Below are positions 3,591 through 49,100 of a stretch of 64,000 nucleotides of DNA, piece after piece. Under the pieces are notes generated by a model that was given only the letters and a program-made list of their open reading frames with translations, was not told the origin of the DNA and made no database searches. Origin of the DNA: Blasia pusilla (lineage: Eukaryota); contig CM114271.1 of assembly GCA_050084515.1 (NCBI GenBank), positions 3,348,001-3,412,000 of the forward strand, written 5' to 3'. The position numbers were made by a program, and so were the translations under genes. Every line of letters begins with the position of its first letter. Position 1 is the stretch's first letter.

Positions 3591-3799
3591 AAAACTGTGG
3601 GAACCACGCTCGATGTTGTAGCTATCATCTCCTGGCGTACCTGCAAAACATCCCAAGAAGTCCAAGGGTTTCTCTCTTGATCACCCCTCGACGTGTCGAT
3701 CTCCTCAGGTCTTGCCCCCAGCCACTGCCTCAACCGTCTTGGTAGGCATGGGGCTCACCAATTAAAGCAACAGTTGTGATCTGTCGTATCCTCAAATGA

Positions 3800-22777: not shown

Positions 22778-22880
22778 GTCTGGGAAAAATCTATCATTTG
22801 CCTTGGGCTGAATAAAGTTCAAGCTCAAAGTGAAGGTTTTGGAAAACTGAAAGTACAATCTAAAACCTCATTTTGCATCC

Positions 22881-23537: not shown

Positions 23538-25649
23538 CAAGGGGCAGCGACGAGCCGAGAGAGCCAGGCAAGAGCACGAGCAGGGCCGGCGACGAGACGA
23601 GCTGAGCAAGAGAGCAAGAAGGGCAAGCAACAAGCCAAGAGAGCCAGCGACAAGTCGAGCAGAGCACGAGCACGAGCAGGGCGAGCGACGAGCCGAGTAG
23701 TGGCACGAGCCGAGCAGGAGCAGAGCAAGGGCGACGAGTTGGGCTAAGCTGGGCTAAGCTGGGAAAATGAGAGGGATCAGGGAGCGGAGGGGAGGGGGGG
23801 TATGGGAGGAGTGAGAAGGGAGAAGTGGGCGGCGGCTGCCTAGAGCCGTGTGATTTCAGATCGAACGGCCAAGCCTTGTGCAAAGCTGCATCGTAGGATC
23901 TAGGTCGAGCAGGGAGAGCCGCTCGATCTCTAGAGGCTGCGGTGGCGGTGGGAGGGGTCGGGGGTACTAATCTAGGTTAGGTGTAGGTTTGGGATCCCGA
24001 ACCTACAAGTTTGGGATCCTAAACCTCATTTTTTTAAATTATTATTATTATTATCATTAAATATCCTTTTTAAATTTTAAATACCCTACCCTACCCTCAC
24101 CTACCCTTTTTAAAATATCCTACCCTACCCTACACAATTTATTTTAAAATAACCTCCCTATTTTGCCTTTTTTTTTACAAAGCTTTTCCCTAATTTTTAA
24201 TTTTGACCATTCAAATTTAACATTTTTTCACTGCAATTCTCACTCTCTTTATTTCACTTCAATTCTCAAGTTTAATGAATAGTTTTGTGTGTCATGTAGA
24301 TGGAGAGTGTCAACGGGTCAGTGAACTTGGAGAGACGGCCACTGGGTGTTATAAAAAATATACCAATACGGCAACAAATTTCAAGGATATAATTTGAGCT
24401 ATCAAAGATCAGCTCTCCGATGTAAGCACGCTTGATTTATGCCTTAGTTCCATTTCCATGATGACGCCTTCGATGCCATTTTTATGTTAATTATATACTT
24501 TGATCATGCAATCCCCCAAATTTTGTACAGACTTCCTCTTCCATCAAACCCAACGGATTTGCGCGACTTTCAAAAATTGATGTGAGCGAACGCACAGCAA
24601 AAAAGACATGCTCGTTGCAAGGAAATCTTTGCACAACAAACATATGTTGAAGATAAACTCCTCCCAAAAATATCTCCAACGTACATTCAATGCATTAACA
24701 ACCATTCCGAACGTTCAAATTCACTTTGCATAATCTCAACTTCATTTGTTCTTTACATTCATTTGTTGTTCCAGACTTCCCATTCCATGGAATCTTGTCG
24801 ATATAAGTGATTTTTGGAAGGTTCTACGTGGCGAAGCCCAAAAAGGAAAGTGGGTTATTCGTGCTGATAAAATGGAAGCTCTCAAAGAAAAAAACAAGAG
24901 TTGCTATCAAGAGTATACAAAAAGAAGGAAAGCACTTAATGCTCAACTTGAGCCTACTTTGGTAGTTGAGAGTATTTCAACGATGGAAAATAATGACCTC
25001 ATGACTATGGATAATCAATTTATGAGGTATATATATCTTACTTTTCTTATCCTCACTCCAAATCATTCACTTCATTGTTCATCTTTTATTTTTATCTAAT
25101 ATTTCTAATATGTTGATGTTTTCTTAGGCCTTTCAGTGAGGATGGAGTAACGGTAGGAGAAAATCAAGAACCTCATGTTCTATCCTCACCAAGACTTGAT
25201 ATACGGGATAGTGCACTCCATGCAGTTATCGAAAATATATCCCTGAGCAGGCCTACTACTTATGTAACACTACGAGTTGAGTTACCTACCACTCTTCCCA
25301 TTCCGGTTGATCATGATGTTGTTGACAATTCTGAGACTTTTCCCCATGTGGGGGATGAAGGTCAAGAGTAGATCCCGTGTCTTCTATCATTGATGGAGTT
25401 GTGTTATCTCCACAAAGCGCCACTAGTATTTCGATGTCTACTATTGAATACATTACTCAATCTTGCCAGACGACCAAATTTCCATGAAAGTAATATTAGG
25501 AAGTTGCGATTACAAAGGAGTTTGAATTGTACCAACGGTCGTCATACGTTGGGTTCTATGACAGAGATATGCCCAAGAGCGGTAAGAGAAGAGGAAGAGA
25601 GGAAGATATTGGCAACCCCAGAAGGAACATGAACATGATAAATACAACC

Positions 25650-27611: not shown

Positions 27612-30520
27612 ATGCGTGATGTTTTAGCTGCCAACCCGATTCACCTCCAACTTCTTTCCCTTGTTGACTCGAGAGTGGGTATTGAAAAAAAATACAACGG
27701 CTTTCCTTGGGGGTTTTTTCAGGTTACCTCACTTATTGATTTTCCACTAGTTGCATGCAGCAATGACCAAACTATTGACAACAATGCAGATTATATCTAC
27801 AGCCAAGTCAAGAACGTCTTGATGGTTAACTTACATCTTAACGAGCTTTATTCACAATACACGCCATTAATACAACTACCCAATCCCACTTGTGGTCTAT
27901 TGGTTCTCCCCTCATCCTCTGTGGAGCAGATTATTAGGTCATCCCAAGAAAAGAGCCAGCCAACGAATAGTATGGAAAGTGATCCTTACCAAGTAGAGCT
28001 CAAAATTCTCTAGGATGTCTAGTACTCCCTTCCTATTAAAAGAAAGCCATCCTACAACATTTTCCATAATCCTCTATTTTTCTCAAGGAAAATGCACACT
28101 CAAGAGATCACTTTCTTAGTGATAGTAATGGTATCTTACCGGATTCTAGACTCACTATTGAAATAGGAATATTCCCTTTTATATTCCCATACCTCAGAGG
28201 TTACTTTTCGATCACGAAAACATTTACAGAGTATATGAGATGTCGCATTAGACAACTGTTGAGTGTCGTCACTCTATACAAACCGTATTTGCTTCTTAAA
28301 CACCAACTAAGGCAGTCTATTATTCTTGCATCCTCTTCACGCACATCTATATTATTATGGGAGAATGCCCTTATAAGAGGTGTCACGTCTCCTCATGATA
28401 CATGCTTTTTTGGGACCAATAACATTCTTCCTCTTAATTCATATTCTTCCTCCTACTAGTTACAAGTGCTCTACTCCCGAGTATGGAGTCGGCTACCTTT
28501 TTTCACCCGTGAGAAGCACAAGCACTGTCTAGTGTATATTAAACGAGGAACTTGAGCAATTGAGGTGAAGGCAACTTGACCTCACCGATGAGGATTTATA
28601 CTCTCAACTATCCAAATATAGCTTCAATGCTCATATTCCTAGCACTCCATCGTGGCATCGCCAACACCTTCCTGACCTTAAGGCCATGGTCCAAAAGTGG
28701 GGCATGCCAGACCTTTTCTTAACACTTACATCGGATGAGGTCTCTGATACAAAGTGGCTTGAGGTGTTGGACATTGAACACCTTGTACGGAAGTTTAACC
28801 CCGCCTATTCATGGAGAGATGCACTTGTTGAGTGAGTTGTTTTGTTTCATACTCGACTTAAGATGTTCTTTTGTAACTATATCCTTGGTGGTCCCCAGAT
28901 CCTTTGTTGCGTAGAAAGTTACCTTATCAATTATGAATTATTGAATACGGACTGCCTGCACTCTCATATTATACAAGGGATAAACAAGGATGACATTGAC
29001 ACCGTCACTAATGAAATATGTTGTTATATACCCTCTCCACTAATGCAACTATCAACACAAAAAGTCTCCCCTGATGAGACGGCCCAGTTGCATCACCTGG
29101 TTCAACCAAGTAGTTGCATACATGTAAGCAAGGCATATGTATTGTCCCCAGGACCCTTGACCATCCTCCCTATTGTCAAATGGGGTTCCCTGCTCCCGCT
29201 AGTTATCAATTAAGGCCACCAATAGATCCAGCCACACTAAAATGGGTGTACTATAGGCCTAGGGCAACTTATCGCAATGTAATACCATATCACTTAGCTA
29301 GTCTGCTCTTGTGGGGGGCATATATGAAGTTGCGAAGAGTCACGAATGTCCAATGGTCCTTCTACCTCCTTAAGTATGCTCTCAAATCATAACCATAGGG
29401 TTCCCTAAATATTACTACTAAGTGCGCCAGATACTTTGGCCTTGACAATCTCGACGAGGTCTGGGTGAAGTTGATATCTGGTTTAGTTTTAAACAGGTCT
29501 GTGTTATCTACTAAGGCAACACTAACAACCCTCAAGATACCCATCATTCATAGATTTGAAGATGTTCAATATATGGAATCAAACCCACCACATCGAAGTA
29601 TTGTGCTTTACAAGAATTGTAAAACAATTTGTGTTCATCCAGCTATACTTTACGACCATCGTCCAGATTGTCTGTCTGATCTGACATTTATTCAATTTTG
29701 GACCAGCTACGAAGTAATTTCATTAGAGACAAAACAAAGCAAAAATCTTGTGGGCCTTGATTGTATTAGGAACTTAGTGTATAAAACCAACCGTGTTGTT
29801 AGGTTTATTGAACATCATCCCCTCAATCAGTGGAATAAGTTCTTCTTCACTACCTTGTTGTCTAATGTTCTTTTCAGATCTGAAGCAGATCTCCTAATTG
29901 TTTCTTCTCCTGATTGGACTTATCTACATGAGTACGTATATAGGAAAAATATTCATGGATATCTCATGCATTGTATAAGAAACTAGAAAACACACCGTAG
30001 CAAATCTCTAGAGCAAGGTACACACTGCACAAATTGTAACAAAGGTATTGGAGGTTGTTTCTCCACATCTTCAGTCCAATTTGTCCCCTCCCACCCATGC
30101 TACAAGTTAGGTTAACTGATATGATATATGTGATGCTAGTGATGTTGTGGGTGAGACTTCCCCTGCACCTCATATCCTAAACTCAGAGCATCTAGATTTG
30201 TATACTCAGCTGAAGCAAATCACATCAAGCTTAGTTCTGCTTATAGGCCCACCACGGTGTGGTAAGACATTTTTCATCCACTTTATGCATGCCTATTGGG
30301 AAATGAAAGTTGGCAATTGTTTACCTTAATGATGACACTCGGGTCATTTGTTCATATCGATCAGATGTAAGTGTATTCAATATTATTGTACTTCAACAAC
30401 TATACTCCTTGTTCATGTTACAATAGACGCACCAAGTGAACCACAAATTCTTCAATGGATACAAGATAGTGACTTTTACCAATTACAATTCCCCGCAAAT
30501 GGTTGTCAGGTTATGCTCAA
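27612..30520 (+). pseudogene. Helitron RepHel, 5' part (HUH Rep and helicase N-terminus)
   Basis: WGMPDLFLTLT (Rep motif 1, ~28700), YE...LHSHII (HUH), FYLLKYALK (YxxKY-like), Walker A LLIGPPRCGKT (~30240), GCQVML (Pif1-like) at the insertion point. The 5' limit is uncertain. Confidence 0.8.
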
Positions 30521-30659
30521 TGTCGTGCGCATACATATCGCTACACAATATACATCGCTCGTCACATCTACACCACACAACACCGATCTTCCCCACACAC
30601 GGGTCGATCCACACATGTACAAAAATCAACTCATACATATACATGGATATCACACAACC

Positions 30660-31274
30660 AAAAATAACGAGTAGTAAAAACGGCACACCCGGCCTAAAAC
30701 TCCACTCCTCAATCTACATTGGCATATCGAGCCTCGTCCACCCTGTGCTATCAAGGAATCCGGACGCTAGCACCCTAGTCCTAGCTCACACACATACAAG
30801 GGAGGTGCTCCAACGGCCCAACATGAGAAAGATGGCTTAGGAAAGCCATCTTCCTCTCTTATATAGGGTTGGGAAGAGCCAAAAGGCTCTTCCCCTAAAA
30901 TAGCCCTTCCCTTGGTAACCTCGCAACAGGTTACAGGGGTGGGTGAAGTCAACAAGTCACCCGGGCCGTGAAAGACCTCAACATGAAAGTCGTCAGAAAG
31001 GACGTTTCTGACACAATGGACCTATCCTCAACCTCATCCAACATTGTGGGACAAAGTTACACTCAAGATAGTCCGCTGGCTCTTACGCCCTATCCACGAT
31101 AGATCTCAGCCTATCGGCTACTCAGATGTGATGGTATGCGTCTTATGCATACATATCGCTACACAACATACATTGCTCGTCACATCTACACCACACAACA
31201 CCGATCTTCCCCACACACGGGTCGATCCACACATGTACAAAAATCAACTCATACATATTCATGGAGATCACACA
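30660..31274 (-). repeat. 3' LTR (~615 bp), followed by an extra U3-start copy at 30521-30659
   Basis: On the minus strand, PPT AGCTAGGGGGGCGGT (31289-31275) then TGTGTGA. 30660-30965 repeats 39996-40308; 30529-30659 repeats 31147-31277. Confidence 0.8.
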
Positions 31275-31356
31275 ACCGCCCCCCTAGCTGGCAGTTGGAT
31301 CCCCCTAACTCCACATAAAAAATATCACAACTCTCTGACATGACCTACTACCCTAT

Positions 31357-31500
31357 ACACATCTCGGACACATCCATTGTCTTGTGGGAACCACATCAAG
31401 AGGGGGGGTCAGATGACATATGCCACCCTCGAGAACAACCATCACATACCAACATGGTGGCTGCACCCCTCGCAGATCCGCACAACATACACCTCAAGCC
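31357..31500 (-). pseudogene. PHD finger at the integrase C-terminus
   Basis: CMLCGSARGAATMLVCDGCSRGWHMS[fs]LTPPLDVVPTRQWMCPRCV* fits C4HC3, with one frameshift at the fifth Cys. Confidence 0.9.
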
Positions 31501-32700
31501 TCCAGGTACCACTGCCAAGCTCGGATCCACCGTCCCATCTACGTCGGAAGATGACATGGCGCACAATTGCGCACATGATCCTTCCAAACCATACCATCCC
31601 GCCCCTCCAACATGAGGACTCGGTCGGTAATACCTCGCACATGTAGGATCGGCGCCTGATGACATCTAGCGTCGTGGGTGCTCTGTAAATACACGTAATC
31701 TCCAGGATGAAACCTCCTAATCCTCGGACGCGATAACCTCCTCCACGAAGGGTCGCACCTCAATGTATCTCTATGTTGGGCAATAGCTAAGTTCTCAAAG
31801 GCCATAGGCATAACTCTCTGAAAAACTTCTGCCCTTTGAGAACATGCTTGCACCCACACATCCGGATCATCAAGATCTAACACCTCCGCCATGCCACGTC
31901 AAATTGCTGCAGGTAAATCGGCTCTCTCCCAAAGAGCAAAAACGGTGAAAATGACGCCAAGGATGCTGCCGACTAAGCGATAACCCATAGCCAACCATGG
32001 CAATCAGAGGTCCCACTCCTCAATCGTCCCCGCGCAAGCCATACTTGCACAATTCTCTCTTCACCGTCTGTACCACTCTCTCGCTAATCCATCCGCCAGG
32101 ATGATCCTGGGCGTGGTGCGGTGATCTATCGCGCCTTTGATCACACAAGGCCTGAAACTCTCCCTCGAACTCGGTACCTTGGTCGACCAACACCTCCGCC
32201 GGTGCACCAAAGTGACTAAGCACACGATCTAGAAACGCATAATTTGTTCCCTTGCTCGCTTTGTCTCGGTAGTGCCACCAACTCTATCCACTTGGAGAAA
32301 TGCTCCACCATGACCAACACGTACCTATGATGATGACTGTCAATGGCAAAGGTCCATAAAGTCTAAACTCCACGGATAACCTAAACCCATAATCGGCAAA
32401 GGATGTAATGTGGAGTGGGAGCATTGAAGGATGCTCGCACTCTGTCACAACAAATCATTGACCCAAGTATGCATGCCGCGCCACCAATACTGAACTGGAG
32501 TAAGTTGTGAGTACGCTTTACTCGAAATGTCCCAACTCCTCATGGGCATGTCGACTACACGTGCTCGCTGGGAAGGATGAGGTACCACTCGTATCCTACC
32601 ATCTCCCCATACCCCAAAATGTGAGTCCCCTCCCACCGAACCTCTTGGCTCTCTCAGAGGATCCGATCCCGCCCCTAGCACTCATCACTGCAATGACGCC
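31500..32700 (-). pseudogene. DDE integrase
   Basis: YWWRGM, EHFSKWIE, LSHFGAPAEVLVDQGTEF, ERVVQTVKR, F.PGDYVYL; frameshifted. Confidence 0.88.
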
Positions 32701-32899
32701 GGCGCAAGAACTCCACAACCTCCACGTCATCATGGATATTGCCGCCTCCTCACCGACCTCGGATCCAAAGACTCATCATCCAACCCCACCACCGAGTCAT
32801 CACCGTGCGGGTCGACCGCCATAGTTAACCAACAAAGATAGGCGGATGCATGCCAACGGGCACCATCTCCTCATCACTCTCTCCGTGCCATCAAGCTCT

Positions 32900-34170
32900 G
32901 TGTCGTCTCGACTCGGACATGGGTTACGACTCAACCTATCCGCATCCTGGTTCAGCCAACCTGGCCTATGAACCACCTCAAACTCATACTCCTGTAGTAA
33001 TAGAGCCCACCTGGCAAGCTTTCCCGTAAGCTTGTCGGACTCCATCAACCACCTCAACGGCTGATGATCAGTGATAAGTGTGAAAGGGTTGCCAAATAAA
33101 TAGCACCTAAAATGTGCCACGGCCCATACCGCAGACCAAGCACTCTCCTCCTAGGAGTCAGATTGCCTGCCTCTGCAATGTTGTTCGATCGGCTCGCGTA
33201 AGCCACAACGAACTCCCTCTCCTCGTCATCCCTATGAGTAAGCACTGCTCTTAGACCCAACATGCTCCAACCCGTATGTAACTGGAATGGGCGACCCCTA
33301 ACCGGTCTCTGTAAAATGGGTGAGGACGTCAACTTGTCCTTGAGCTCCTGAAATGCTCGCTCCTGATCATCTCCCCACAACCACACCTAATCAAGTCTCA
33401 TCAACAAGGTCAAAGACTTTGCGATCGCACTAAAACCCTTGACATACCGTCGATAGAAGTTCGCCAGTCCAAGAAATGCTCGGACTCCACTCACATCTGT
33501 AGGGCGTGGAATCTGCGCAATAGCCTCTACCTTTGTCTGCTGAACGCCTAACCCACTCGAGTATATGGTGTGTCCCAAGTACTCAATTTGCTCTGAAAGA
33601 ATGCACTTGCTGGATGTAAAGTCCATGTAATCGCAATCGCCGAAACACCTCCTCCAAGTGTCGCTCATGCTCCTCAACCGTGGAATCAAGATAAGAATAT
33701 CATCTATGTATCATCGTACAAAATCCAAGCCAGCCAGTAATCCTATCCATCACTGAAACTCGCAGCGTTCTTCAACCCAAATGGTAAGAACCGCCATCGA
33801 TACAAGCAATCTCTCCCAAACCGATCTATCCCCTAGAATGTTGTCTTCTCCTGTCCTCCAACTCGATAGGAAGTCGATGATAGCCAAAGACGGAGATCTA
33901 AAATCAAGATCTTTGCATGCCCTACCGCATCAAAGATCTCCTCAGAGTAGGCATGGCATACCGATCGACCTCGTTTGTCGATTGATAGGAAGGTAAAGAT
34001 CGGCGTATCACTAGCCAACTCAATCCGTATCCCGGGACCCTTCAGCGCACCCAAGTCTCTCATCATCAAGGCAAAACAACCGACATGCCCTCTCGAGAAA
34101 CCTATGAACTGTCGCTCTCCTCCTATCAACTTGAGACCTATCACAGGCTCCCAAGTCTCCATCGTGACCT
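32900..34170 (-). pseudogene. Reverse transcriptase and RNase H
   Basis: PFGLKNA, YIDDI, IEYLGHTI, VRAFLGLANFYRRYVKGF, PFQLHT.WS, VVAYASRS, FTLITDHQPLRWL, LARWALLLQEY. Confidence 0.92.
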
Positions 34171-34464
34171 TGAGAGGCGCAACCTCCGGCTTTGGTTGCT
34201 ATGTAGCAACCCTAGCCACCTCAATACAACCACTCCACTTTGACCTCCTACACCATGCTCCACATCTGAAAAATGAACATGTGCTATTCTAGCCGCCTTT
34301 GCACTCTCTGCTCGAACACGCCCCAGAAGTCCATGGGTGCCTATCTCTCCTCGTCTCGCCCCACCAATGCTCTGACAGACCCATGAGGCGTGGTCCAACT
34401 CGTGGGGCGTGACGGCATGGATGACACTCGCATCCGTCTACCTTTCCACCATACCTAGGTGACT

Positions 34465-36390
34465 ATCCATGTGAGACATTGAGGTCCATGCCCCAAAACT
34501 CTCTCGGGATGCCTCGGTCATCCTGGCACCGCCAATACCGGTAGTGAACCCATGGCGCACTCTCGCTCATCTGGTGTAGGCTCCTCCAATACTCCGGTCA
34601 CCTCATCCCAAATCATGCCTGGCCTCACGACAAAAGGCATGGGATGCCGGGAAGCTCACCAACGAGGTAAGGCTGCCCTCAACTCCCCACCCTATTGGCC
34701 GTGGCCACGGTGGTCTATCATCGCATGTCACCACCGAGATCGACGCCGTGAGTCCAAAATAGCATCCACCGTGAGATGTGGTGCTCTCGACTCCACGTAG
34801 GTGGACTCGGTACCTCGATGGTATCAGGTTCGGCCCACTACGATGCGTGGGCGATGGCACGTGTCGGCGCCTACTCTCCTTGAACGTTAATCTTGTTTGT
34901 TGCGAAGCGTGCGTTCGATGAGGTCACGCTCTCAACGCTGATGCATCCAAACACGCACGGTTCGTTAGTCGGGTCTTGGATCAATCAGCGGGATTACTTT
35001 CCGAGTTCTCGTCTCGGACTCTCTCTTCAAGCTCAACCTTCCTAGTTTCGCGGTTTCCAACACGGGCAAGTCTCGAAAGAGACTTTCTCGTCGGTTGAGG
35101 AACTGAAAACGGCGTTCGCCTAGCGGTTCCAATCGTCCGATGAACATCCAATGAGTTCCTCACCAAGACTCGCACAAAGTGAATCTGGTTGGAATCCAGG
35201 GTGGCGACAAAGTCCACTCCCTTGGATCAGGTTTGGGTTTGGGTTTCGCGCCAAACTCCCGTTTCATCCCGTGCCTCAAACGCCGTTTGGCGCCCAAAGT
35301 GGGGTTTCGTTTCGAGACATCTCAGAGAAGGTACTCCTTACTAGTACTTCTGGGGATCTCCGGGGCCCCCTACATTTAGGGAAAGACACCGGGCCCCTCC
35401 ATTGGCCCTCAACCCGATTGCTCTCTGAATCGTTTTCGGCCAATATCTCAGCCTGTACTTATGCATTTGCTGAGATCGTTGGTGCGTTGGAAGCGTCTCA
35501 AGATCAGCTTTCCAACGCGCCCTTTGTCCCGAACGCATCTCGGAGCTCAACGTTATGGTCCTAAACACAGTCAGATTCTCCCAAACGCTAGTCATGTTCC
35601 AAACTGGTTCTCACCTCTTTGGCAACCAACCTCCAAGACTCAACTCATCTCAAGTCTCGGCTCGCGTTTGGTCTAGGTTTCCTGGTCGCGACCACTAACG
35701 CATGAAACGCACAACTCTGTTCCGCGTTTCGTCTCTTAGACTTTTCCAAGAGACTCTACCAAACGCCTCTCCAAAGCGCAAACCTCGCGGCGTGAGTTCC
35801 TTTGAGTTCTGATGTTTCGCTTGGCGCGTATTTGGTGTTGTTTGGTTATGAGGGTCGCGACAGCACTTGACCCAACTCTCGCTGCATCTAACAACACAGC
35901 CGGTCCCAACCAGGACTTCACCTGATGTACACTCGTCATCACACGTGCATGAGTATCTCCCAACAACGGCACGTTCTCCAAAATGTACGCTGGAGAACAT
36001 ATCTGACTGTGCTACAAGTGTCGTACTACTCGCAACATCTCCCGAAACATCCCCTGACCTCGGATCCGCAATCCAAATCCTCGGCCGGTGATGAATGATC
36101 CGACATGGCCATCCAAAGCAATCACCAAATGAATGGTGCCAACTCTATCAGATCTCGCGCCCCACCAAAGATATGTTGGCGGGTGGCGTATGCCGGTATC
36201 CCCATCATCGCAGATACCGACAAAACTCAGGATACCCTGGACCAATCTCGCCACGTGGCGTAATGATACTCGCCGACGGTCTCATCTCTCCACATTGATG
36301 CACCCGTCGCCTTTTTGCAATATGGCGCCAATCCGGTGCTAATCCCTCGAAGAGATCTAACACCCTAACACCCTCCTCAGGCACCGCCAT
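34465..36390 (-). pseudogene. DNMT3-like C5-cytosine methyltransferase domain within pol, interrupted by a solo LTR
   Basis: Motif I VRVLDLF(G)GISTGL (~36340-36370); motif IV IHLVIA..GWPC (36103-36114); motif VI YILENV (~35970-35987); motif VIII LDAARVGS(R)AHRPR...NL split by the insertion; IX-X EEPTPDERE.AMG...RVLG..MDLN. Confidence 0.88.
34862..35862. mobile_element. Solo LTR (1001 bp) with 5-bp TSD
   Basis: TGTCG...CGACA termini; flanks GCACG / GCACT; the DNMT motif VIII sequence continues on both sides. Confidence 0.8.
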
Positions 36391-36749
36391 ACAACAGTGT
36401 GGTATCTAGTGGGGTCATCGTCTCCACTCCAAGAGCCCGATCGCCACGTGACTCGTTGCTCGGGATAAACACATGACTCCACGCCGCCTCACGAGGTCGC
36501 CGGCACTCCTCTGAGCTCTCGAGTCGTACCCCACAATGGTGAAGAGGCATCGCTAACATGGGAAGAGACACCCGCCATGGCTGTTGTCTCTCCGTGGGAG
36601 TGTCCGCTCTTTGGGACATCCTCCGCATGTGTGTTCCCCTCAACAACTCTCCTGGCCGCTAACACTACCGTGAAAGCGCGCAACGTGGTCACGCCTCGTG
36701 ATCGACCACCTCGCCCCAAATCGACGGGGTAATCGCTCATCCGACCGTC

Positions 36750-37150
36750 ACCTAACCGCCATCCTGGCCGATAAGCAACGGTCTCTCCCGAGAAGTCAGG
36801 ATGAATCCTAGGGGATATAACATCACTCCCCACCAACACATCGACGACTCAGGTGTCGTAATCACACGTAGCGCACATCATAGCACTATCCGTCGATGCT
36901 CTGGCTGGACTCGAGAACAATCTCGTCGAAGTCATATATCGAGTGGGTGATACGCCCAATCGAGGTCTCAGATCTGGAAGGACAAGGCTCAATGTCAGCC
37001 TTCCGTAACCCTAACGCTAAACACGCCGCTTCCCTAACATCAAGGGTTGCGCCCCGAATCAAGTAGGACGCGTTATGGTGGTATATCTTGTCCCCTTCGG
37101 ACTAACCAAGCGAAATACTCCGGCTCGGTTATCCAAAGAACACTACTCCA
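36750..37150 (-). pseudogene. Retroviral-type aspartic protease
   Basis: RVLLDSG(A)QPLMLGK at ~37035-37070 and DVLVGSDV flap motif at ~36840. Confidence 0.8.
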
Positions 37151-37649
37151 TGTGTCACCATCGCCGCTCTATGGCGGTTGAGTGGCATATCTACCAACTT
37201 TGCCGCCGCATGCCATGACTCTGGGGAACGCCCCAAGCACCGGCTCTAAGGGCAAGTCCATGACCTCCTCAACTACCTCTCGAACAAGAAGGTCATCTCT
37301 CCACGCTCACACAACGTTGCCAACCGAACACCTCGGCCAGTCACCACTCTGTTGCCTCAGCCTCAACCCATATTGGAGAGATCCTCACCCGGTCGGGGTA
37401 AGAGGTAGAGATTGAGTCACACTAGCGCCGCAGCCTGCCTTCCCTAAGCCGCATCATCATCATGGCGCAATCCCTGCTCCAACCGATCGATGCGTGAGAG
37501 AAAGCGCGGCTTTGTGCTCTGCTCCATCTCCCTCTCGCTGGTGGTGGTCCTCTACCACCACGTCGGGAAGAACTCCCGACCTCCTCGGGGACGGCCGCCC
37601 CAGGCCTCGGCCTACCACCGACGTGCCCCTCGGCGAAGGTCAAAACATC

Positions 37650-38873
37650 TATCCCTAGTGTGACCATATCTGCGGGCAATGGTCACACTGGTGCCGTGGT
37701 GGGGCCATCCTCTCCTGGGCTCTGCGCAATTGGAGGCGCTGTGGTCTTCTCCCATCTTGTGGGCGATCTCTCTGCCTATGGGCCCCTCCACACGCCCAAC
37801 AAGACCACATTGGTCCTGCGGGCAACATATGTAGCGGTCGTTGCCTCATAGGCTCACGGTACCCGCCCGCTCTTTCTAGGCACACAGCCCGCTCTCCGGT
37901 ATCGGTGCTCGTTTAGGCACTGTGGGGTCACCGCCGTGGACCCGTCGACTCTCGAGAAAATCCAGCGGTCACTACCGCTCCTCACTCATGTTGAGCTCAA
38001 TATGCTCAGACAACTCAAAGACCACCTTCAATGTGGGCTTGGGCCATTTGTGTGAATCAAAGACCGCATCTCGGACTCTTCTCTGTAGTTCTCGGTCCGT
38101 AACCCCAGACCAATCTTTGGATCGCGCCTCGATCACTCCAAACATAGCAATGATCAGCCTCCTCATGCGTGTGAATGCCTCTCTCGACTCTCACCCGATC
38201 GCCGCTGAAAATCTGAGACTCTTCAGCTTGTCGGGACGCTGGTAGTTCTTCCCCAAGCTGCCGGAAGAACTCCTTTGTGGGCTGAAGCCGGGTGGCCCTC
38301 TACCACCAAAGGTCTCTCGCCACATCGCTTTGTCTCACCGCCCTCCTCTCCATCTAGTCTCCGGGTTGATGGTGTGGGTCTCTCTCCTCTCACAATCCCA
38401 TCATATGCCTCGCGACCACTAGTGGACACATACCCGGAGCCAAGTACATCCTCCAGGCATCGATCTCTCTGAATATAGTGATCGAAACTCCATGTAGTCA
38501 TCCATCGGAGGACCCTCCAAATGTTGGAACAACCCCTTCCATGCCATGAAAGGGTTGAACGTGTCGGGTCCGTATCTCCGGAAGTCGCACAATGTGTCGA
38601 ACTCTGGATGAAATCATCTAAGTCGATGGTGCCCACTGCACCTGAGAAACGACGAATGCCCGGATGGCCCATGTCGTCCATCTCCTGCCAAGTACTACTC
38701 TCTCTGTCGGTGATCTCGTCACAAGACCCACTATCCAGTGATGACGATCCAATCACGGATGGATGTCGAGGGAGCTCCTCACTGGTAACCCCTCGGTATC
38801 TCACTCCACTCCGTGTCAAACCTCTACCACGACTACCCCGTTCTTCCGAACCCGAAGAACGCCGTGATGACAA
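37650..38873 (-). pseudogene. gag with zinc knuckles
   Basis: MSSRRSSG...LTRSGVRY start; CWACGGAH...D.P and CDHC...H knuckles at ~37650-37800. Confidence 0.75.
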
Positions 38874-39975
38874 ACCCTATCTCACCCACTCAAGCACTAG
38901 ACTCACCGAGAGTCTCCCACACGCCTCACTAGCTCACCTATGCTAACGTCAATCCCGTGATGACATACCCGGCCTCACGCACTCTCAACACTCGGGCTCA
39001 CCATGAGCCTCCCAACTGACTCACATAACCTAGCGACACTCTCTCGGGTCATACACGCGATCCTACTCGGCAAACCGCCGATATCCACCAACATGATACA
39101 CATGAAAAGAATCTACACTCGTCACCATCATCGCACCCATCTAGCACCGGCTACTACCCGATACCCAAAGACTCTCAATCACACACGACAAGTGCGGAAA
39201 AGGGACTAATGGGTAACTGATCACGCCCTCCAACTGCTGCACCGTCAATATGTACTCCTCCACATGATATGACAATCTCCGCCACATAAACCAACACATC
39301 GATCCTCCCGTCACAGATGCGGACAACCCGTCGGCATCATATACACTGCCCCTCCATCGTAAATCCTCACAACGCCTGTCGCGCCCCAAAAACATCATTT
39401 CACACCCGCTGTCCAACTTGTCGGTCACCCACCACGTCGACATCCTCCCTGCCCTCCACGTTGCCCATGCGCGCGTTCGCGGACCGACCTCGTCCGCCCT
39501 ACCACGTTCGCTACATAATCGCATCCACCTACCACGTTGGAGGGGGAACTTGGACCGCGACCCTATCTGAGACCCTAAATGGGACCCTAAATGCCGGGGT
39601 CCGCACCTCGCTTTGTCGCGCCCGCGATTCGCGTTCGCGCCCCTCGCCCGTTATTGTTTGCCCCTTGCGTTCCGTCCGCCGCCCTCGCCGTGACCTAACT
39701 CTAGCCGCTTTTACTTGACAGTCCCCCGGAGGCTGCAAGACCCAAACCTGCCCTTTCCTTCTCTCTCGACACCCTCACTTTCGTGACACCCGACGCCCCA
39801 CCACGCTACACTGTTGTCCCCCATCAATCCGCACCAAAGCAAAATCTGAGAAAATGGAAGCGCTTACGGCCTTCGAACAGAAAAATGACACAAAACGTCA
39901 CACACACGTCTCCAGGGGCTCCCCAACCGAGGCAACTCGCTTGCCTACCTGCAAACAACAAATTCCCACCAGCCC

Positions 39976-39992
39976 CTAAGCCATCTTTCTCA
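39976..39992 (-). promoter_or_regulatory. Self-priming primer-binding site (complementary to the LTR R region)
   Basis: 39976-39995 is the exact reverse complement of 40157-40176; no TGG-tRNA PBS is present. Confidence 0.7.
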
Positions 39993-40308
39993 TGTAAAAA
40001 TAACGAGTAGTAAAAACGGCACACCCGGCCTAAAACTCCACTCCTCAATCTACATCGGCATATCAAGCCTCGTCCACCCTGTGCTATCAAGGAATCCGGA
40101 CGCTAGCACCCTAGTCCTAGCTCACACACATACAAAGGAGGTGCTCCAACGGCCCAACATGAGAAAGATGGCTTAGAAAAGCCATCTTCCTCTCTTATAT
40201 AGGGTTGGGAAGAGCCAAAAGGCTCTTCCCCTAAAAATAGCCCTTCCCTTGGTAACCTGCGTGCACAGGTTACCAGGGGTGGGTGACCTGGTCAACAAGT
40301 TACCCGGC
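39993..40308 (-). repeat. 5' LTR, 5'-truncated
   Basis: Ends ...TTTTTACA at 39993 (minus strand); TATA CTATATAAG at ~40202-40194. I count 4 transitions and 1 indel versus the 3' LTR over ~260 bp. Confidence 0.85.
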
Positions 40309-40641
40309 TATGAAGTAACAACAATAATTATCAGCTTGCACTCTAACAATAAGCTTATCCGTGTTACACGTACAAACTTTTCCACTTTACATTATGGCCC
40401 TGACCAAAAGTATCAGAAGAGAACTTTTCCACTTGTTCTTGGTTATGCCATGATAGGACACAAGAATCAAGGCATGACTATTACAGGAAAATGTCTGCTT
40501 GTTATCAAGGCTCCGTTTGCTCTTGGTCTTGTGTACGTCACGCTATCGTGGATTAAGACAAGGGAAAAATTGTCAATTCTTTGTTCAATTTTTCCATCTG
40601 ATGTTCATGTATATAACCACCTTACTTCTTCTTTCACCTAA
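40309..40641 (+). pseudogene. Helitron Pif1-like helicase C-terminus
   Basis: RTFPLVLGYAMIGHKNQGMT...FALGLVYVTLS matches Pif1 motifs V-VI. Confidence 0.88.
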
Positions 40642-41738: not shown

Positions 41739-41916
41739 AAAATTAATCAGTTCACTCTTTCACTTGTAAATTACCTATCTATTTAGTTTTATTGTTCATA
41801 TTTTAATTTAACATTATAATTATATTGCACAAGACTTTTAATTGTCGTCTTTCTTTTGCCTTATGTTTATATGAATGTGAGAGATGTTTCCCACCAGTTA
41901 TGCTTCTTTATCTACA

Positions 41917-43560
41917 TGGTATCAGAGCGATAAGAGAACATGAATTGAATTTATTGATGTTTGAGGAGATGAGAGAGGCAACAGAAGGCACAATTTCTAC
42001 TTGGGATAAGAACATTTCGTTCAAAGCTCAATGGCCGTAGATTTCACATGGAATTTTGACGATGATAAAACTTTGGAGGCATTTTTTAGGACTTTCCCGG
42101 TCTATTTAGCCATTTGGCTCCGTATCGGTTAGAAGACTACGCAAGATGGTTCTTATGGTCTTGCAGAGATCGTCGAGAGATTTCCAACGCATCCAAAATT
42201 AGTCAATTCTGACGCTCTGAGCTCCTACAATAGCAATTACAATGTAGGAAAGTGTAATTAGTGAAGAAAAGTTGTGTAGTTTGCTTTCTTAAAGGCCAAT
42301 TTCGACTAGTTCTTTCATACAATTGATCAATTTTGGCAAATTGTAGATCGATTTCTATTTAAGAATGGTCTTTGCTTCAGTTCGAGTATTGGAGAGCCTG
42401 AAATTATATTTTTGTAATAAAATCGTTCGTCATGGAGTATTCCTTAACAGCAATCACAGGCGAAAAGTTAGATAAGCAGAATTACAATGTCTTGAAGTTT
42501 CACATGAAACAAATTCTCAAGGATCAAGAACTTTTGGGAGCTTGTAATAGCTAATAAGACCAAGCCTGAAGGTGACTCAATAGATTTGAATGTTCGCGTT
42601 TGCAACAAGCGCGCAAGGTAAATAATCCACTATATTTCAATAACGATCAGTTTGCCAATGATAGGTGGCATACAAGATGTTGATACTCCGAAGGAGACCT
42701 AGGATGCATTGGAAAATTTATTTGTAGACATCTACAAAGGCCATAAAGCTTTAATTAAAACAAAAATTGAACGGAGAGAGGATAGGATCATAGAGCATCC
42801 ATGATTATATTTTGAATTTAAGATATATTGTTGATCAGTTGAATAAAATTGGAGTAAAAATGTTGATGTATGGTGTTCAATTTTCAAAGCCTTCCAAAGG
42901 ATTAGAAGTTTTTGAGACCTCTATCTCTGTGAGAGAGAAGTATTCTCCTTTCAAGAGTTAGTCCCACTGTTAATCAGTGAAGAGATGCGTTCCTAGTAGG
43001 CAATGGTAGTTCGTCTAGTTTGCAAGAGAGCGCGTTATTTGCAGGTAATGGATCAAACAGAAGTTGGGGTCGTGGTAGAAGCTTTCGTAATCATGGTGGA
43101 TATCAAACATATGGAGGGAGATGCGCTAATCATAATTTCACTTAATCAACTACGAATCAGTACCAAACACAATCATAAGGTGGTGATGGTGGAAATCTTT
43201 GGGTTCGAGATCAACAACACATGGTCCCTAGATCTTGCAATAATTGTGGGATAAAGGGTCACGATGCAAAGTTTTGCTTCAAGAAGAAGGCAGATATGAG
43301 AAGAGGAACCTTACAACAACTAAACTATGTGGAGCAACAACACCAAAGGCACTATCAAGAATAACAACATTTAAAAATTGAGCACCTATTGGTCATGACT
43401 CACTATATGTGAGCAATGGTCAAGAAAAACTTAACAACAGATTGGTACATTGACTCTAGTGCATCAAAAGCTACATGATTCAATAATATGGAGCTAGTAA
43501 AAGATCCTGCAATAATGCTCACAAGAGATGACACTCAGCATCATATCACGCAACTGGTAA
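41917..43560 (+). mobile_element. Ty1/Copia 5' remnant (tRNA-iMet PBS, gag, protease)
   Basis: CA|TGGTATCAGAGC PBS at 41917; gag from 42432 (EKLDKQNY..KF.MKQIL); CNNCGIKGHDAKFC knuckle at ~43236; WYIDSSAS protease motif at ~43443; decayed. Confidence 0.88.
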
Positions 43561-46150
43561 AGTTCAAATAGCTGTAGATAATCTTCTGAGTCCGTAGGCT
43601 CAGAAGCGAGCTTCCATTCCACTAACGACAAGAAGGAGAGAGCTGCGAAGGTTAGAGGTAGTCTGGCAGCTAGTCCTACTGTGGTTGTTGAGTGTCATTG
43701 GCTATATGAATTCATGATGGTCGTTCAGGAAGTAGGCACAATCCCTGAAATTGATGCAACAACTACACACTGAATGGAATGTTGGTTCATCGTTCAACAT
43801 ACTTGGAGAATGCGGGAATGGAAATTGGATTGTTCATGGATGAGCGAGTATTTGAGTGATCAACAAAGTGGACTCCGTTGTATGTGAAGGTTTATGAATT
43901 GTGTGGACAATCAGGATACTTCCAACGGCGTATCTGGCTGGCCGCGTGTTCAGGATAGTAAGTCGTGTGATTTAGTCTCGTTCAAAGATACACAAAGATT
44001 AGTAATGGCATGAACAAATAGGAAGATGGGGTGCCGAAATCAGAAACAACTGCATTGTTTTTCCAGGTGCGTCCCCGATTACTCAAATGCTGTGAGGGGT
44101 TGAGGAAAAATGACTTCTTAAATAATAGCGGCACTTTATTGCCGCGTATGTGTCATTCTTTGGTTACTCTGCAGGTAGGGAAGCTGGTGGCGCAAATAGC
44201 TACGTTTGGAACGAACAATATGTGCATGCCATTAGAACACCATGCATAAAATTTACAACGAGCAAACACTAATGGATATAGAGGAAATAGCATGGCTACT
44301 TAGGAATTCATATGCAAAATGCGACGTGAAAGCAAGGAGTCACGAAGAATATTGAACCATGGTAGATTGCCCAATGAGCTGCAGGGAGACAACATACCTG
44401 ATAGGAAAAGCGACAAGTGCGAAACTTCACAGGTATTTAGCTGCAGTGGAACAAACCCTCTATCAGCTTTGAGATGGAAACAAACTACAATACCTCCATA
44501 ATCTAGTTAAGAGTCAATCGAAAAATGAGGGACACGACAGGGCGCAATACAAAATTGCAAGTGTTGAAGAAGGCTCACCACTAAGTCGGGAATGAATCCC
44601 AATCTGCACACGATAGATATAGACAACAATGGTAAGTGTAGAGCAAGACGGCTAAAGGTACTGCGAAGAAGTCTTCCAGAGTTGCAGAAAAGGTGTGGCA
44701 AATGGAAGAACTGAAATGAATAGACAATCGGAGATTTGAGAACGAAAGTCATTAGTTAGTATCGTGGGCCGAGGGATCTCACCTGGATCGATGAGCAATG
44801 ACTATGAAATGGCTGGAATAGAGATAGGAAGGGAATTGAAGGTGCGCACCCATATGGTCTAGTGTAGCAAGGAGCATTAAGGCCTATCATATGTGAGCAA
44901 CCAGTAGCAGCAAATCGTAACCAACCCTTGTACACGGGGACATTCACACCTAGTTAGGTGCATGAATTGGTGCCTACGCACTGAACTTGTTCAGAATTGG
45001 ACATAGCACGGGCTTCTCCTTCGTATACAAGAAAAAGAAAGACAGAATGCTTTAGAGTCGAGATGTAAGCACCCAACAGGGTGATAAACTTTCTTTTCTG
45101 TTTGGAGAGAGCAAGACCGAAGGGCACGTTGGCGATGTGAATCAGGCTTATCAGCTTGCACCTTCAAAACTAGTGGCTCTTTTCAGTTTTAACATTAGAG
45201 TTGAGAGAATATGCACTAGATGAATTCAACCCAAGTTGATGAAAAACATTAATGACGAAAAACTTCATTGAGCTCTACCGCATCAAGCCTAGGCACTCGT
45301 TCAGATACTACACACATGAGCCCAGACAAGAATTGACCTGCCTAGAGCCATTTCTCAAGACGCCCAAATTTAGAGACCTTGCATTGGGCTTGTAGTTTCA
45401 TGAAAGACTTATGAAGATGAGTTTGTTCCAAACAAGTGGAACTAACTGCATTTAATACTGCTATGAAATCCAGCCTTAGCCTCACAAGTTCGCAGTGACA
45501 TTAGTTCAATGCCATAAGCAACCAAATCCTGCAAGTGGGATTGAGTGCTGCGGACCTAATGAAGAGCCGCAAAGCACCTCAAGTTTCCAAAGCACATGGA
45601 ACCAATGATGACTGAATTCATCCACCTTCCCATGAGTGCAGACCACAACAACCAATGATAGCAAAGACACCTCCATATTAAAAAATCGACTATACCTTTG
45701 CTATAAATTGACCCTATCAACTTTTGCTACCTGAATGGCCTGGCTTTGGAGCAACAATACCATCATCAAGCCTTCATTTGCTTTCTGATTAACTCTATTA
45801 TTCATTCCATTCATTACAAAAGGCTTTTCCCATTTTGAGGTCAAAATGCAATCAATTACAGAACATATGCTCCTCCACTCGAAACTAGGAGATCCTCACT
45901 ACATGCAATGAAACAGGTATCATCTGAGGGCAAGGAATGTGAGAATCCAACATAGAATCATATAGGTGCGCGTATAAGAGATATATGTGAATATGCACAC
46001 ATTGCCAATTTGAAAATAGAATAAAGTTGGCACCTGCAATCTCCGACTAGTGAAATTGCAGAGAGACTTCCTAAGAAATGAAATGGATTATAGCTTTACC
46101 GTCAGCCCAACAACCTCATCTAGTCTACAAAATCATTGTTGATATCCCTT

Positions 46151-49100
46151 TCAGAAGTACTGAGACAAGTCTTCCCCACTCAAATCCTCCAAAAGCTTGA
46201 CCACCTCCTGAGTCTGGGCAACCACAGTCAACTCAGTGTCTTCAAGTAGCTCAGCAAGGAAAGGAATGGTTTCTGGAAGAAGGACAAGGTATTCCTCTTT
46301 CAAATGCTCAGCAAGGAATTTCACCACTCGTAAACCCAGCAGCCGAGTTCTCTCATTCTCAAGACGTGTTCGCATCAGAACCTGCTCTCGTGTACACCAG
46401 TGTAAACCATCAAGGAAAGACTTTCAGAGTTTGTCATGAATCCTTACTGCTCTTTACAGAAGCAGATCCAGGATTGACTGAATTTGATGACCTCCCTTTT
46501 CCCAAAAAGGACAAGGAAAGACAATCACAGCACTAATACTCCTCAGAGGTTTTAGTGCTACCACAAGCAATATCAAGAGATAATTGAACTTAATAAGAAC
46601 TACAAATTTTTTTTGCAGAAGGATACTTTAAACATCGTAGAACTTCCTCAACCACTTCGACCAGCCATAACTTACTAGACGTGGTCCGATCACATACCTA
46701 CAATTAGCTTCAAAACATATCCAACCCGCTCCCAATATCTACTGCCCTGATTGGCCCATCCCAAAAGCCAAAGTAACCCGCCTACGGCATAGATAGCTAT
46801 GAGTAAACATACCTCGTGATTTAAAGGTTTCCAGAGAAGGTCGGTCCCTGCAGTCAGAGCCATTTGGCCGAGACAAGACACTAACGTATCATCCATTTCT
46901 CTGAGACTCGGAATTTGTTTGAGTGTGTGAAGGTCATCCTCATTTGCAAGCTTCGTTACTTCAGTTGGAGGATCTACGGCAAGTTGTGTAACAACAGGTT
47001 CTAACAAGAGCTGCAAGTTTGCATTGCAATAATGTCAGAGGGAGGACCCAAGCTAAAAAAAGTAATATTCTTTTCTCCCATCAAATTGCACATGTCAAGC
47101 ACTTCTGCTGTGAGAAGATTCAACAGCCACAACTCACCTGAAATTTTGTTGCATCCAAAAAATTCACTGTGTCATATAGAAAGCACTTGTGCAGTGATGA
47201 AAGGACAAGCTGTCGAAGATTCCACTCTGAAGAACTAAATGAAGACTTTTGCTCTTCAGCTGCAGTATCTTGTGGCTGTTTCCTCTTCTTCTTCTTTGGC
47301 TTCCACGACTCATGTTCCATCGAGTTTGCTCCACTTGTGAGATGGTGCACACAACCATCAAGTAGATACTGAAAGTATGGAACAAAGACTGACCTGTACA
47401 TGTGATAGTGCAGTTAGAAGGTGTTAATTTATCAAAAGATTTTTTCGACAGCACACCCCAGAACAACTAGCAAAATCATTACATTTGCAAATCCAGAAAA
47501 GGCAATCTCTGGTTCTACCAGTAGACTGAATTGCTGTAGTAGCAGTATGGTGATTGTCTACCTCACATCTTAGACTACATCTGGAAGGATCTACTTAATG
47601 GCCCTAGTCTCAGTGCCTCAAGTCCAAGGGATATTACAAGTGTTCAACTATTCTTAACATTCTTTTGATTTTGAGATCTCAACCTAAACCCAGATGACTG
47701 GAATCTGGAAGGATCTACTTAATGGCCCCAGTCTCAGTGCCTCAAGTCCAAGGGATATTACAAGTGTTCAACTATTCTTAGCATTCTTTTGATTTTGAGA
47801 TCTCAACCTAAACCCATTCCAGTAGGAGCTTATTATAAAAAAAAAAGGTTTACCTGAGTTTTTCAGTTAGATGATTTACGAGCTTATAGAACAAAATGTT
47901 GCGATCCACACTTCTACTTGCCATTGAACCATCTCCAAGTTCAACCTCAGATTCAGCCCACTCCAACATTTTCACAAATATTGGCTTGAAAGTTGTTTCA
48001 TTAAGTTTCATGACCAGAGAAGTAACTGCCGTCACCAATGCCGTCTCCACCTTTGATACAGAAACGATTGTGCTGGGAGCTTGGAGACGGATATCAAACG
48101 CAGCCAAGCAGAAGTCGAAGATTTTCCCATGATATGCAACTACTGCAGGTCGGTCCAGTGTAGCAGTCATTGTAGCCAACATTTCGAAGAGGGCACATGC
48201 AGAGTCTTCCCCTATTTCAAGTGCCCTCTTATATGTACTCATTAGAGGGTCAAGCAGGAGGCGAACCTGCATAAGTTCCACCATTATAAATAGTTAATTT
48301 CAATGGATATCAGGGCTAACAAATACGAAACAATATGTTGTAGGACAGAAACCAGGATCAAATGTGCATCAGCACAGACATTGCCTTCAACTGAGATCAA
48401 GCTCCTGAGAGTGTTTGTGCAGTTAAATATCCCTCCAGTCAATTTGGTTTTCACAATGACACAAGAAAAAGGCTAGCTGATGAAGTAATAACCAGCTCTG
48501 CATCTAGTTCATACCGGTATTTTAGCTGGTATTAGTGTCCGCAGAATTGCTGCCTTTTTTGTGAGTTTTGAAACAGAACCTGTAATAAGCTGTGGTTGTA
48601 AGAGAACCAAGCCAATAATCTTTTGCAAGTAAGGAGTCAGGAAAGGTCCTAATTTATCTAATAAAGTTTCTAAAGCTCCAAGAATAGCCACAGCAAGTTC
48701 GGATTCGTCCCCTTCACTTTCATATTCAAAAGAGCCTTGCACCTCAGAGGTAGGTGCAAGTGCATGCTCTGCCACTTCAAATAGTGCAACCACTGTGTCT
48801 GGCAGACCCGGCAAAGCATGGGGACCTAATTGAGTTAGAATTGTTGACACACATCTCACAGCTGCAACGACCACTGCCCTGCTATTCACGTGAAAATTCT
48901 TGACCAAGGCTGCAAGAGAAGAAATGAAAACGTCCGGCAGTCTTGCAGCGCAGTTCCATGCTGATACATCCAATGCTTCAATTGCTGCACGCTTGGTACT
49001 CATGGACAACTCTTCACCAGGGCCTGTTAATAGCCCACCAATGTCTTTAATCATTTCAATTCGGACCACAAGTTCCTCCGTTGTAAAATGCTCTTCTTCA

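Follow-up and report, generated by a model that had tools for sequence, protein, structure and literature searches.

A decayed retrotransposon copy from Blasia pusilla, probably of a Ty3/gypsy family with a DNMT3-type methyltransferase in Pol

The window analysed here is a 64,000-nucleotide (64-kb) stretch of Blasia pusilla DNA (assembly GCA_050084515.1, contig CM114271.1, positions 3,348,001 to 3,412,000), and it contains a retrotransposon copy at 30521-40308 on the minus strand. With high confidence, we read this focal copy as a decayed, non-coding member of a high-copy Ty3/gypsy family from liverworts and mosses. The Gag-Pol of this family would consist, in order, of gag (CCHC), aspartic protease, DNMT3-type cytosine-5 methyltransferase, reverse transcriptase, RNase H, DDE integrase, and a PHD finger at the end, its repeats would follow the order A-coding region-B-A-B, and it would be an element of the KnitGypsy-Dnmt3 kind.

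Cytosine methylation is the main weapon of the host against transposons, and a de novo methyltransferase carried by a transposon is therefore a paradox. The role of such an enzyme has been open since a 2018 report on dinoflagellates and one charophyte. De Mendoza et al. (2018; PMC5890265) reported Dnmt-carrying retrotransposons from Symbiodinium and Klebsormidium and from no other organism. The same kind of element now has relatives in liverwort and moss genomes, including 13 Marchantia polymorpha gene models. The question thus moves to land plants, which are open to knock-outs, methylome analysis, and transposition assays. A further consequence is that some “DNMT3” genes counted in bryophyte annotations are transposon copies. 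We found no published description of DNMT-carrying retrotransposons in bryophytes or other embryophytes; the supplements of PMC5890265 and PMC12344493 may list such copies. Transposon-borne DNMTs in bryophytes are not mentioned in the available parts of PMC6453930, PMC9516144, PMC5784723, PMC11982613, PMC8616336, PMC9289625, bioRxiv 363937, and bioRxiv 2021.02.12.428880. An earlier sequence-only reading of this DNA was not aware of such an element being established for embryophytes. No earlier description was found, but the element is less new than supposed, since its repeat layout matches the published Klebsormidium element.

Coding domains and extent of the focal copy

Stop-to-stop open reading frames (ORFs) on the minus strand contain pieces of reverse transcriptase (RT), RNase H, and integrase at 32-34 kb and candidate methyltransferase motifs at 34.4-36.4 kb. 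In tblastn comparisons, relatives covering gag, protease, DNMT, RT, RNase H, and integrase match the window in colinear order, and the following regions were delimited (E, expectation value; P numbers denote related proteins).

37579-38682, minus strand: gag-like region, decayed (tblastn with P0011, P0018, and P0005, E 1e-30 to 1e-39)
36934-37142, minus strand: aspartic protease region with LLDSG at 37066-37052 (tblastn and motif; relatives have PF13975/PF13650)
37142-35862, minus strand: tblastn extent of protease and first DNMT half (relatives against the window)
35862-36412, minus strand: N-terminal DNMT half with motifs I, IV, and VI, in three frames, in-frame TAG at 36014-36012 (protein search, tblastn, motifs)
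34881-35861, no strand assigned: 981-bp insertion splitting the DNMT between motifs VI and VIII (tblastn and motifs)
34353-34880, minus strand: C-terminal DNMT half with motifs VIII, IX, and X, in-frame stops (tblastn, E 5e-9 to 3e-12)
33168-34159, minus strand: RT with YIDD at 33710-33699 (tblastn with P0008, linked segments E 6.9e-107)
32902-33386, minus strand: RNase H (Pfam; tblastn extent 33135-32902, 75.6% identity to P0008)
32035-32702, minus strand: DDE integrase (tblastn with P0063 and P0026)
32702-31545, minus strand: tblastn extent of integrase and C-terminal region (relatives against the window)
31399-31665, minus strand: PHD finger remnant at the C-terminal end of pol (Pfam PHD 20.7 bits, below the cut-off of 24)

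The order protease-RT-RNase H-DDE integrase, which defines Ty3/gypsy elements, is present in Pol (tblastn on the window; Pfam on P0063). For Pfam scans of the focal copy, the three minus-strand frames were read through with X at stops, for the whole element and then for shorter pieces. Only RT_RNaseH (55.1 bits) and RT_RNaseH_2 (55.9 bits) were reported, both above cut-off; in a further Pfam scan of this copy, rve reached 22.3 bits, below its cut-off of 32.6. In P0063 and P0064, both rve and Integrase_H2C2 are above cut-off. No phage-integrase (tyrosine recombinase) domain accompanies them in these two proteins by Pfam, which separates the family from DIRS elements.

The conserved motifs of cytosine-5 (C5) methyltransferases are known by number. 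Motifs I, IV, VI, VIII, IX, and X were located by motif reading in canonical, non-permuted order on the minus strand, distributed over three frames; their equivalence to DNMT3A positions was taken from sequence alignments.

36369-36343, minus strand: motif I, VRVLDLFEG, followed by ISTGLAP at 36343-36323 in another frame
36114-36103, minus strand: motif IV, GWPC
35987-35955, minus strand: motif VI, YILENVPLLGD (ENV)
Ending at 35862, minus strand: LLDAARVGSSA
34880-34845, minus strand: motif VIII, RRVGADTCHRPR
Within 34583-34548, minus strand: motif IX, DERECAMG
34508-34482, minus strand: motif X, PERVLGHGP

The two domain halves were matched by a Marchantia relative with E values of 4e-26 and 5e-9 (tblastn). 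The sequence-only reading had proposed a gypsy-type retrotransposon with a DNMT3-type C5-methyltransferase in pol, lying between protease and RT. The ordered motif set in that interval and the colinear tblastn alignment bear this out. The same reading had the enzyme made as part of the polyprotein; for the focal copy, such a product is excluded. The first domain half alone has at least five frame changes and an in-frame TAG, and with its frameshifts, stop codons, and the 981-bp insertion this copy cannot encode the enzyme.

The 981 bp at 35861-34881 have no likeness to any relative by tblastn, and the residues RVG are duplicated, with one copy on each side. This insertion had been regarded as a solo long terminal repeat (LTR). 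We dropped that interpretation, since no terminal inverted repeats and no inverted or LTR-like ends were found, and no second copy exists within the 64-kb window. Reads were placed at 85% likeness, and DNA depth is the sum of both orientations. Depth in the insertion is 789-895, compared to 585-739 in the two upstream bins (35737-37070). Because depth inside matches that of the adjoining bins, the insertion seems to be common to many family copies. In addition, 105 DNA reads bridge the insertion, joining 34788 to 35863. A deletion variant without motif VIII was considered for these reads and rejected, because read placement does not define what lies between the joined ends and because the adjoining 81 bases are too diverged in this copy for reads to be placed on them.

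At the 3' end of the element, 1856 DNA reads match up to 30521 and then continue in different ways (agreement 0.46), which marks 30521 as the true family end. At the 5' end, repeat homology stops at about 40307. Both ends agree with the limits first assigned to the element (30521-40308). The element interrupts one plus-strand ORF, whose halves lie at 29399-30520 and 40309-40641. From their motifs, we take the halves to resemble a PIF1/Helitron-type helicase; Pfam assigned neither half to a family.

Relatives and type of the methyltransferase domain

When 5.8 billion proteins were searched with the frame piece at 35739-36281 (minus strand), 26 matched, at E values between 2.4e-24 and 9.7e-8. 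Thirteen are from Marchantia polymorpha, two from Calypogeia fissa, and two from Sphagnum, and nine have no species name. Precomputed annotation assigns PF00145 (DNA_methylase) to 21 of the 26, and two have the source name “DNA (cytosine-5-)-methyltransferase.” Among eight relatives scanned with Pfam, six reach the PF00145 cut-off of 22 (27.7-36.2 bits); P0018 has no match, and P0026 has rve only. P0063 (33.0 bits), P0064 (23.6 bits), and an intact 451-amino-acid ORF from metagenome locus L001 (31.3 bits) also match. In P0008, RVT_1, RT_RNaseH_2, DNA_methylase, and RT_RNaseH are combined in one protein. P0063 is a single ORF of 2352 amino acids with zf-CCHC at 399, protease at 764-860, DNA_methylase from 1018, RVT_1 at 1497-1656, RNase H at 1719-1848, and Integrase_H2C2 plus rve at 1967-2135. 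P0064 (2995 amino acids) has another order, which is protease, RT, RNase H, DNMT, G-patch, integrase, and PHD. This protein shows that the DNMT module either changed its place in pol or was captured on more than one occasion. An alignment-based search of proteins 2185-5000 amino acids long gave two matches, and no named protein of Klebsormidium and no named host DNMT3 was among them.

From 103 relatives detected in a metagenome scan, 80 loci (L numbers) were kept. Of 28 relatives, many of which are truncated gene models, all 28 have ENV, and 24 each have [GR]WPC and the motif I pattern. A tree was built from 24 of the 28 plus two pieces from the window, leaving out four with fewer than 200 aligned residues. 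Separate clades were recovered for Marchantia (99/100), for Sphagnum plus further rows (99/99), and for Calypogeia (97/93). Both window pieces fall inside an enclosing 97/99 clade, each on its own long branch outside the three genus clades, and P0063 and P0064 are outside the 97/99 clade.

The second of these pieces comes from another fragment in the window.

2984-4437, minus strand: second, diverged fragment with the DNMT C-terminal half (ENV at 4365-4333, AHHPHLWWTNL at 4242-4210) followed by RT (tblastn with P0015)

This fragment has 59% identity to P0015 from Marchantia over 226 residues (E 1e-80), with six in-frame stops, and RT_RNaseH_2 scores 37.8 bits in it (Pfam). At E 1e-5, it does not resemble the focal copy at the nucleotide level, and this divergence indicates that two family lineages are present in one 64-kb window. 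A gag-like piece at 2455-2868 on the plus strand adjoins it on the opposite strand.

In the focal copy's own frames, PF00145 gave no match, whether the element was scanned whole or in pieces. This result would be expected if the motifs were a chance resemblance or a one-off fragment of host DNMT3 in a single copy. We consider that explanation extremely improbable, given an E value of 2.4e-24 among 5.8 billion proteins and the same domain in the same place in 26 relatives, 80 loci, and the second window fragment. Lack of a DNA_methylase match is, to the letter, the outcome that the sequence-only reading had named as refuting it. However, the domain is split over three frames, and this fragmentation, not absence, explains the missing match. 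Recognition by the Pfam DNA_methylase model was thus obtained for relatives, which score above cut-off, but not for the focal copy. That the domain is a feature of the family is confirmed by its identical place in three bryophyte genera, the P0063 polyprotein, and the second fragment.

The long branches of both window copies outside the three genus clades could also suggest that the window comes from an alga or another organism outside the land plants, and that the bryophyte likeness of the element reflects horizontal transfer. In addition, the host gene in the window did not lead to a taxon: a protein search with an exon of the HEATR1-like gene gave no match, probably because full-length HEATR1 is longer than the 2000 amino acids that this search allows, and a second look-up placed the exon in Eukaryota without further detail. 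However, the window copies are within the 97/99 clade that holds Marchantia, Calypogeia, and Sphagnum sequences, and all 17 relatives with a species name are bryophyte proteins. Two diverged lineages in 64 kb and roughly a thousand copies also speak for long residence. This explanation is quite unlikely.

The “DNMT3 flavour” noted at first reading is backed by both a sequence profile and fold matches. These tests were run on relatives (a profile and the L001 domain) in place of the broken focal copy. Against solved chains, P0015 matched DNMT3A best (E 2.3e-6), followed by HaeIII (0.016) and DNMT2 (0.3). A profile of eight relatives matched DNMT3A (1.1e-8), DNMT3B (4.8e-7), DNMT3C (8e-7), tobacco DRM (1.2e-4), DNMT2 (2.9e-3), and HaeIII (0.012), and DNMT1 was not matched among solved structures. 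The DRM chains align to the motif I-IV part only. A first AlphaFold model with 8 alignment rows had a predicted local distance difference test score (pLDDT) of 38 and was not used. For a second model, of the naturally intact L001 domain, the alignment had 34 rows, the extra ones coming from 36 protein matches of 42-627 amino acids, all but three of them shorter than 270; pLDDT was 76 and the predicted template modelling score (pTM) 0.76. In a Foldseek search with this model, all among the matches listed (ranks 1-50) were DNMT3A/B/C, with a best E of 5.6e-16 and template modelling scores of 0.69-0.76 against chains of the methyltransferase domain only. Profile and predicted fold support a domain closest to DNMT3 among solved methyltransferases.

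Compared to DNMT3A/3B/3C, plant DNMT3, and DRM, the element domain is alike in the catalytic fold, LFxGIxTG, motif VIII AHRxRxxWxNL, and a short target-recognition region. Motif IV is GWPCQ in the element and GSPCN in the DNMT3A chain, and motif order is ordinary in the element but rearranged in DRM. Unlike host DNMT3, the domain forms part of a retrotransposon polyprotein and is not accompanied by PWWP or ADD; neither was found by Pfam upstream of the catalytic domain in P0008, P0011, P0015, P0063, and P0064.

The peptide of the PHD remnant (31399-31665) matches 29 of the 80 related loci. PHD (PF00628) scores 40.5-44.1 bits in L021 (6926-7129), L019 (6576-6779), and L056 (10013-10216), with a stop codon directly after it, and P0064 also has a PHD finger after the integrase. 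In chromoviruses, a group of Ty3/gypsy elements, the integrase has a C-terminal chromodomain. A chromatin-reader module is at the C-terminal end of the integrase in both groups, but it is a PHD finger in this family and a chromodomain in chromoviruses.

Repeat arrangement and kinship with known elements

Repeats of the element were delimited by comparison of its ends.

39996-40307, minus strand: repeat A1, 5' terminal, with a TATA-like box and the inner arm of the 18-nt self-complement (95.2% identity to A2, 312 columns)
39977-39994, minus strand: 18-nt self-complement directly after A1 (exact complement inside A, at 40158-40175 and 30822-30839, plus strand)
31279-31291, minus strand: polypurine-tract-like run CCAGCTAGGGGGGC directly before B1 (same run in L009, L062, and L068)
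31147-31277, minus strand: repeat B1 (96.9% identity to B2, 131 nt)
30965-31146, minus strand: 182 bp separating B1 from A2 (nothing comparable upstream of A1 in the focal copy)
30660-30964, minus strand: repeat A2 (sequence comparison with A1)
30521-30659, minus strand: repeat B2, the 3' element terminus, ending ...CGCACGACA (sequence comparison with B1)

In sense order, the focal copy consists of A1, the coding region, B1, the 182 bp, A2, and B2. Repeat A is probably longer and begins with the 182-bp stretch; in 511 DNA reads, A1-like sequence is joined at its end (40309) to 30968. Ten long metagenome loci were compared for repeat layout. L009, L062, and L068 have the order A1-coding-B1-A2-B2, in which A2 is bordered by B1 and B2 without a gap; L054 and L064 have the A pair only, and no repeats were found in L035, L037, L060, L043, and L015. 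In the window and in L009, L062, and L068, the run CAGCTAGGGGGG precedes B1 and B ends ...CGCACGACA. Two equal LTRs are not present, the repeats running A ... B-A-B. Four copies, whose boundaries are uncertain by a few bases, had no evident target-site duplication.

Tf1/sushi-type LTR elements prime reverse transcription by self-priming. In those elements, sequence after the 5' repeat is complementary to the inside of the repeat, and the likeness here is one of complementarity. The 18-nt stretch has three exact matches in the window, a number reached in 0 of 100 shuffles. Its partner inside A starts 18 nt after the end of the TATA-like box, about 26 nt from the first base of the box. An analogous 16-nt self-complement with a different sequence is located just after 2017 in L068. 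No tRNA-type primer-binding site was recognised, the site after A1 pairing with the inside of A, and Rfam and tRNA scans of the window gave no matches. The complementarity suggests self-priming of reverse transcription at 39977-39994. In classical LTR terms, B would be the start of U3, because it follows the polypurine run, and A would end with U5. The genomic order A-coding-B-A-B may then correspond to a two-LTR circle opened at the junction of B and A, despite the DDE integrase.

The arrangement A-coding region-B-A-B is that of DIRS elements, and KnitGypsy-Dnmt3 of Klebsormidium nitens has DIRS-like repeats together with gypsy domains (de Mendoza et al., 2018; PMC5890265). Gypsy domains, a non-rearranged Dnmt3-type domain in the Pol ORF, and this repeat order, by which the published description characterizes KnitGypsy-Dnmt3, are all found in the present family. 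SymbioDIRS-Dnmt3 of Symbiodinium likewise has a Dnmt3-type domain in Pol and the A-coding-B-A-B order, but it has a tyrosine recombinase, whereas the family described here has a DDE integrase and gypsy-type protease, RT, and RNase H. KnitGypsy-Dnmt3 differs in its host, a charophyte alga, while relatives of the present element are in the land plants Marchantia, Calypogeia, and Sphagnum; it also has few copies in K. nitens, compared to about 10^3 in the genome studied here.

The elements of bryophytes and Klebsormidium could form one streptophyte lineage, inherited vertically since before the colonization of land, with a circular intermediate and with a DNMT3 writer and PHD reader marking its own insertions. 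We put this forward as a speculative proposal that is more doubtful than probable. If it is true, the many copies in Marchantia polymorpha make the role of transposon DNMTs testable in a tractable land plant. Bryophyte elements might instead have gained DNMT3 independently of the Klebsormidium element, by convergence. De Mendoza et al. (2018; PMC5890265) argued for recurrent, independent Dnmt captures, and P0064, in which the DNMT follows RNase H and precedes integrase, shows that the arrangement of pol is not uniform. However, both A-coding-B-A-B and the gypsy domains are common to KnitGypsy-Dnmt3, and two origins of both traits are less likely. Independent gain therefore also appears rather improbable.

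Copy number, constraint, and proposed function

DNA depth per bin is 1064-1289 at 30.4-34.4 kb and 254-937 at 34.4-40.4 kb, compared to a mean of 0.7 in 12 non-repeat bins. This comparison points to a family size of roughly 10^3 copies in the genome, a figure that is rough because the baseline is low and reads from conserved genes may be filtered out. Many reads differ from the focal copy by single-base insertions or deletions; therefore, not all frame breaks of the focal copy are common to the family. In three RNA runs, sense-strand depth for the family was 27-36 in the RT-integrase part, compared to 0.5-13 in the DNMT and gag parts. The RNA orientation of a minus-strand host gene in the window (5-35 per bin, six spliced introns) also dominates in the element. 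Because most element reads are less than 95% alike to the focal copy, the transcripts come from other copies. As a separate observation on base composition, the ratio of observed to expected CpG is 0.89 in the element (GC content 53%) and 0.38 at 45700-64000 (GC content 41%); the element keeps its CpGs, and the surrounding genome is strongly CpG-depleted.

Substitution ratios (dN/dS, nonsynonymous to synonymous) were calculated by the Nei-Gojobori method. The DNMT domain had a median dN/dS of 0.60 (range 0.31-1.05) in 190 pairs, which are not independent. In the same 16 copies, the values were 0.58 for DNMT and 0.30 for RT-RNase H, and the DNMT value exceeded that of RT-RNase H in 115 of 118 pairs; both values are inflated because none of the copies is alive. 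The DNMT domain is constrained, but clearly less than RT.

Several of our results weigh against reading the focal copy as a member of a DNMT3-carrying family of the KnitGypsy-Dnmt3 kind. The difference between 0.58 and 0.30 is one of them, as is the missing PF00145 match described above. Constraint on the domain (0.58) is also much weaker than in Klebsormidium, where Ka/Ks of the Dnmt domain is below 0.2 (de Mendoza et al., 2018; PMC5890265), and kinship with KnitGypsy-Dnmt3 is read from architecture, not from sequence, as none of the searches yielded a Klebsormidium sequence. No ORF longer than 508 amino acids was found on the element strand in the 80 metagenome loci, which contain no demonstrably intact element in DNA, and full polyproteins are limited to P0063 and P0064.

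These values bear on whether the methyltransferase is carried along as a passenger in decay, which was captured once and has ceased to serve the element in bryophytes, with copies spreading by means of proteins supplied in trans. The dN/dS difference between DNMT and RT-RNase H fits this explanation, and 19 of 20 ungapped DNMT copies from the metagenome have 1-7 stops in the 398-codon domain, L001 alone having none. The abundant subfamily also seems, from depth, to carry the 981-bp insertion in the domain, and RNA depth over DNMT is several-fold below that over RT-integrase. On the other hand, dN/dS is below 1 in nearly all of the 190 pairs, the catalytic motifs are kept across genera at 47-68% identity, and domain position is the same in the Marchantia, Calypogeia, and Sphagnum clades. 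The compared copies are all dead, and neutral decay after insertion inflates dN/dS of every domain. We consider a passenger unlikely, though by no means far-fetched.

If the enzyme does serve the element, the methyltransferase of intact members would be made within Gag-Pol and may methylate newly made element DNA or the new insertion in cis, and the PHD finger at the integrase end may read a histone tail and place the complex on chromatin. Methylation in cis of an element's own new DNA was also proposed by de Mendoza et al. (2018; PMC5890265) for their elements. Alternatively, the DNMT could act in trans on host chromatin, or it could methylate RNA. The whole function suggested here by domain content (DNMT made from Pol, methylation in cis, and tethering by PHD) is tentative, and we regard it as possible rather than probable.

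Apart from the element, the window contains a host HEATR1-like gene at 45700-53500 on the minus strand (PF23243, 35.6 bits), which is expressed and spliced in the three RNA runs; its six introns are 127-539 bp long, and each is supported by 20-70 reads in every run. Another repeat is located at 41740-43740, with a DNA depth of 120-290, compared to 0.7 in single-copy bins, and almost no RNA. There are also two pairs of similar long ORFs, 21690-22640 and 22884-23753 (both minus strand) and 6956-7627 (minus strand) and 18973-19482 (plus strand). Pfam gave no family for 21690-22640, 22884-23753, and 6956-7627, and the C-terminal part of the ORFs at 21690-22640 and 22884-23753 is cysteine-rich. The paired ORFs (21690-23753; 6956-7627 and 18973-19482) are probably other mobile elements.

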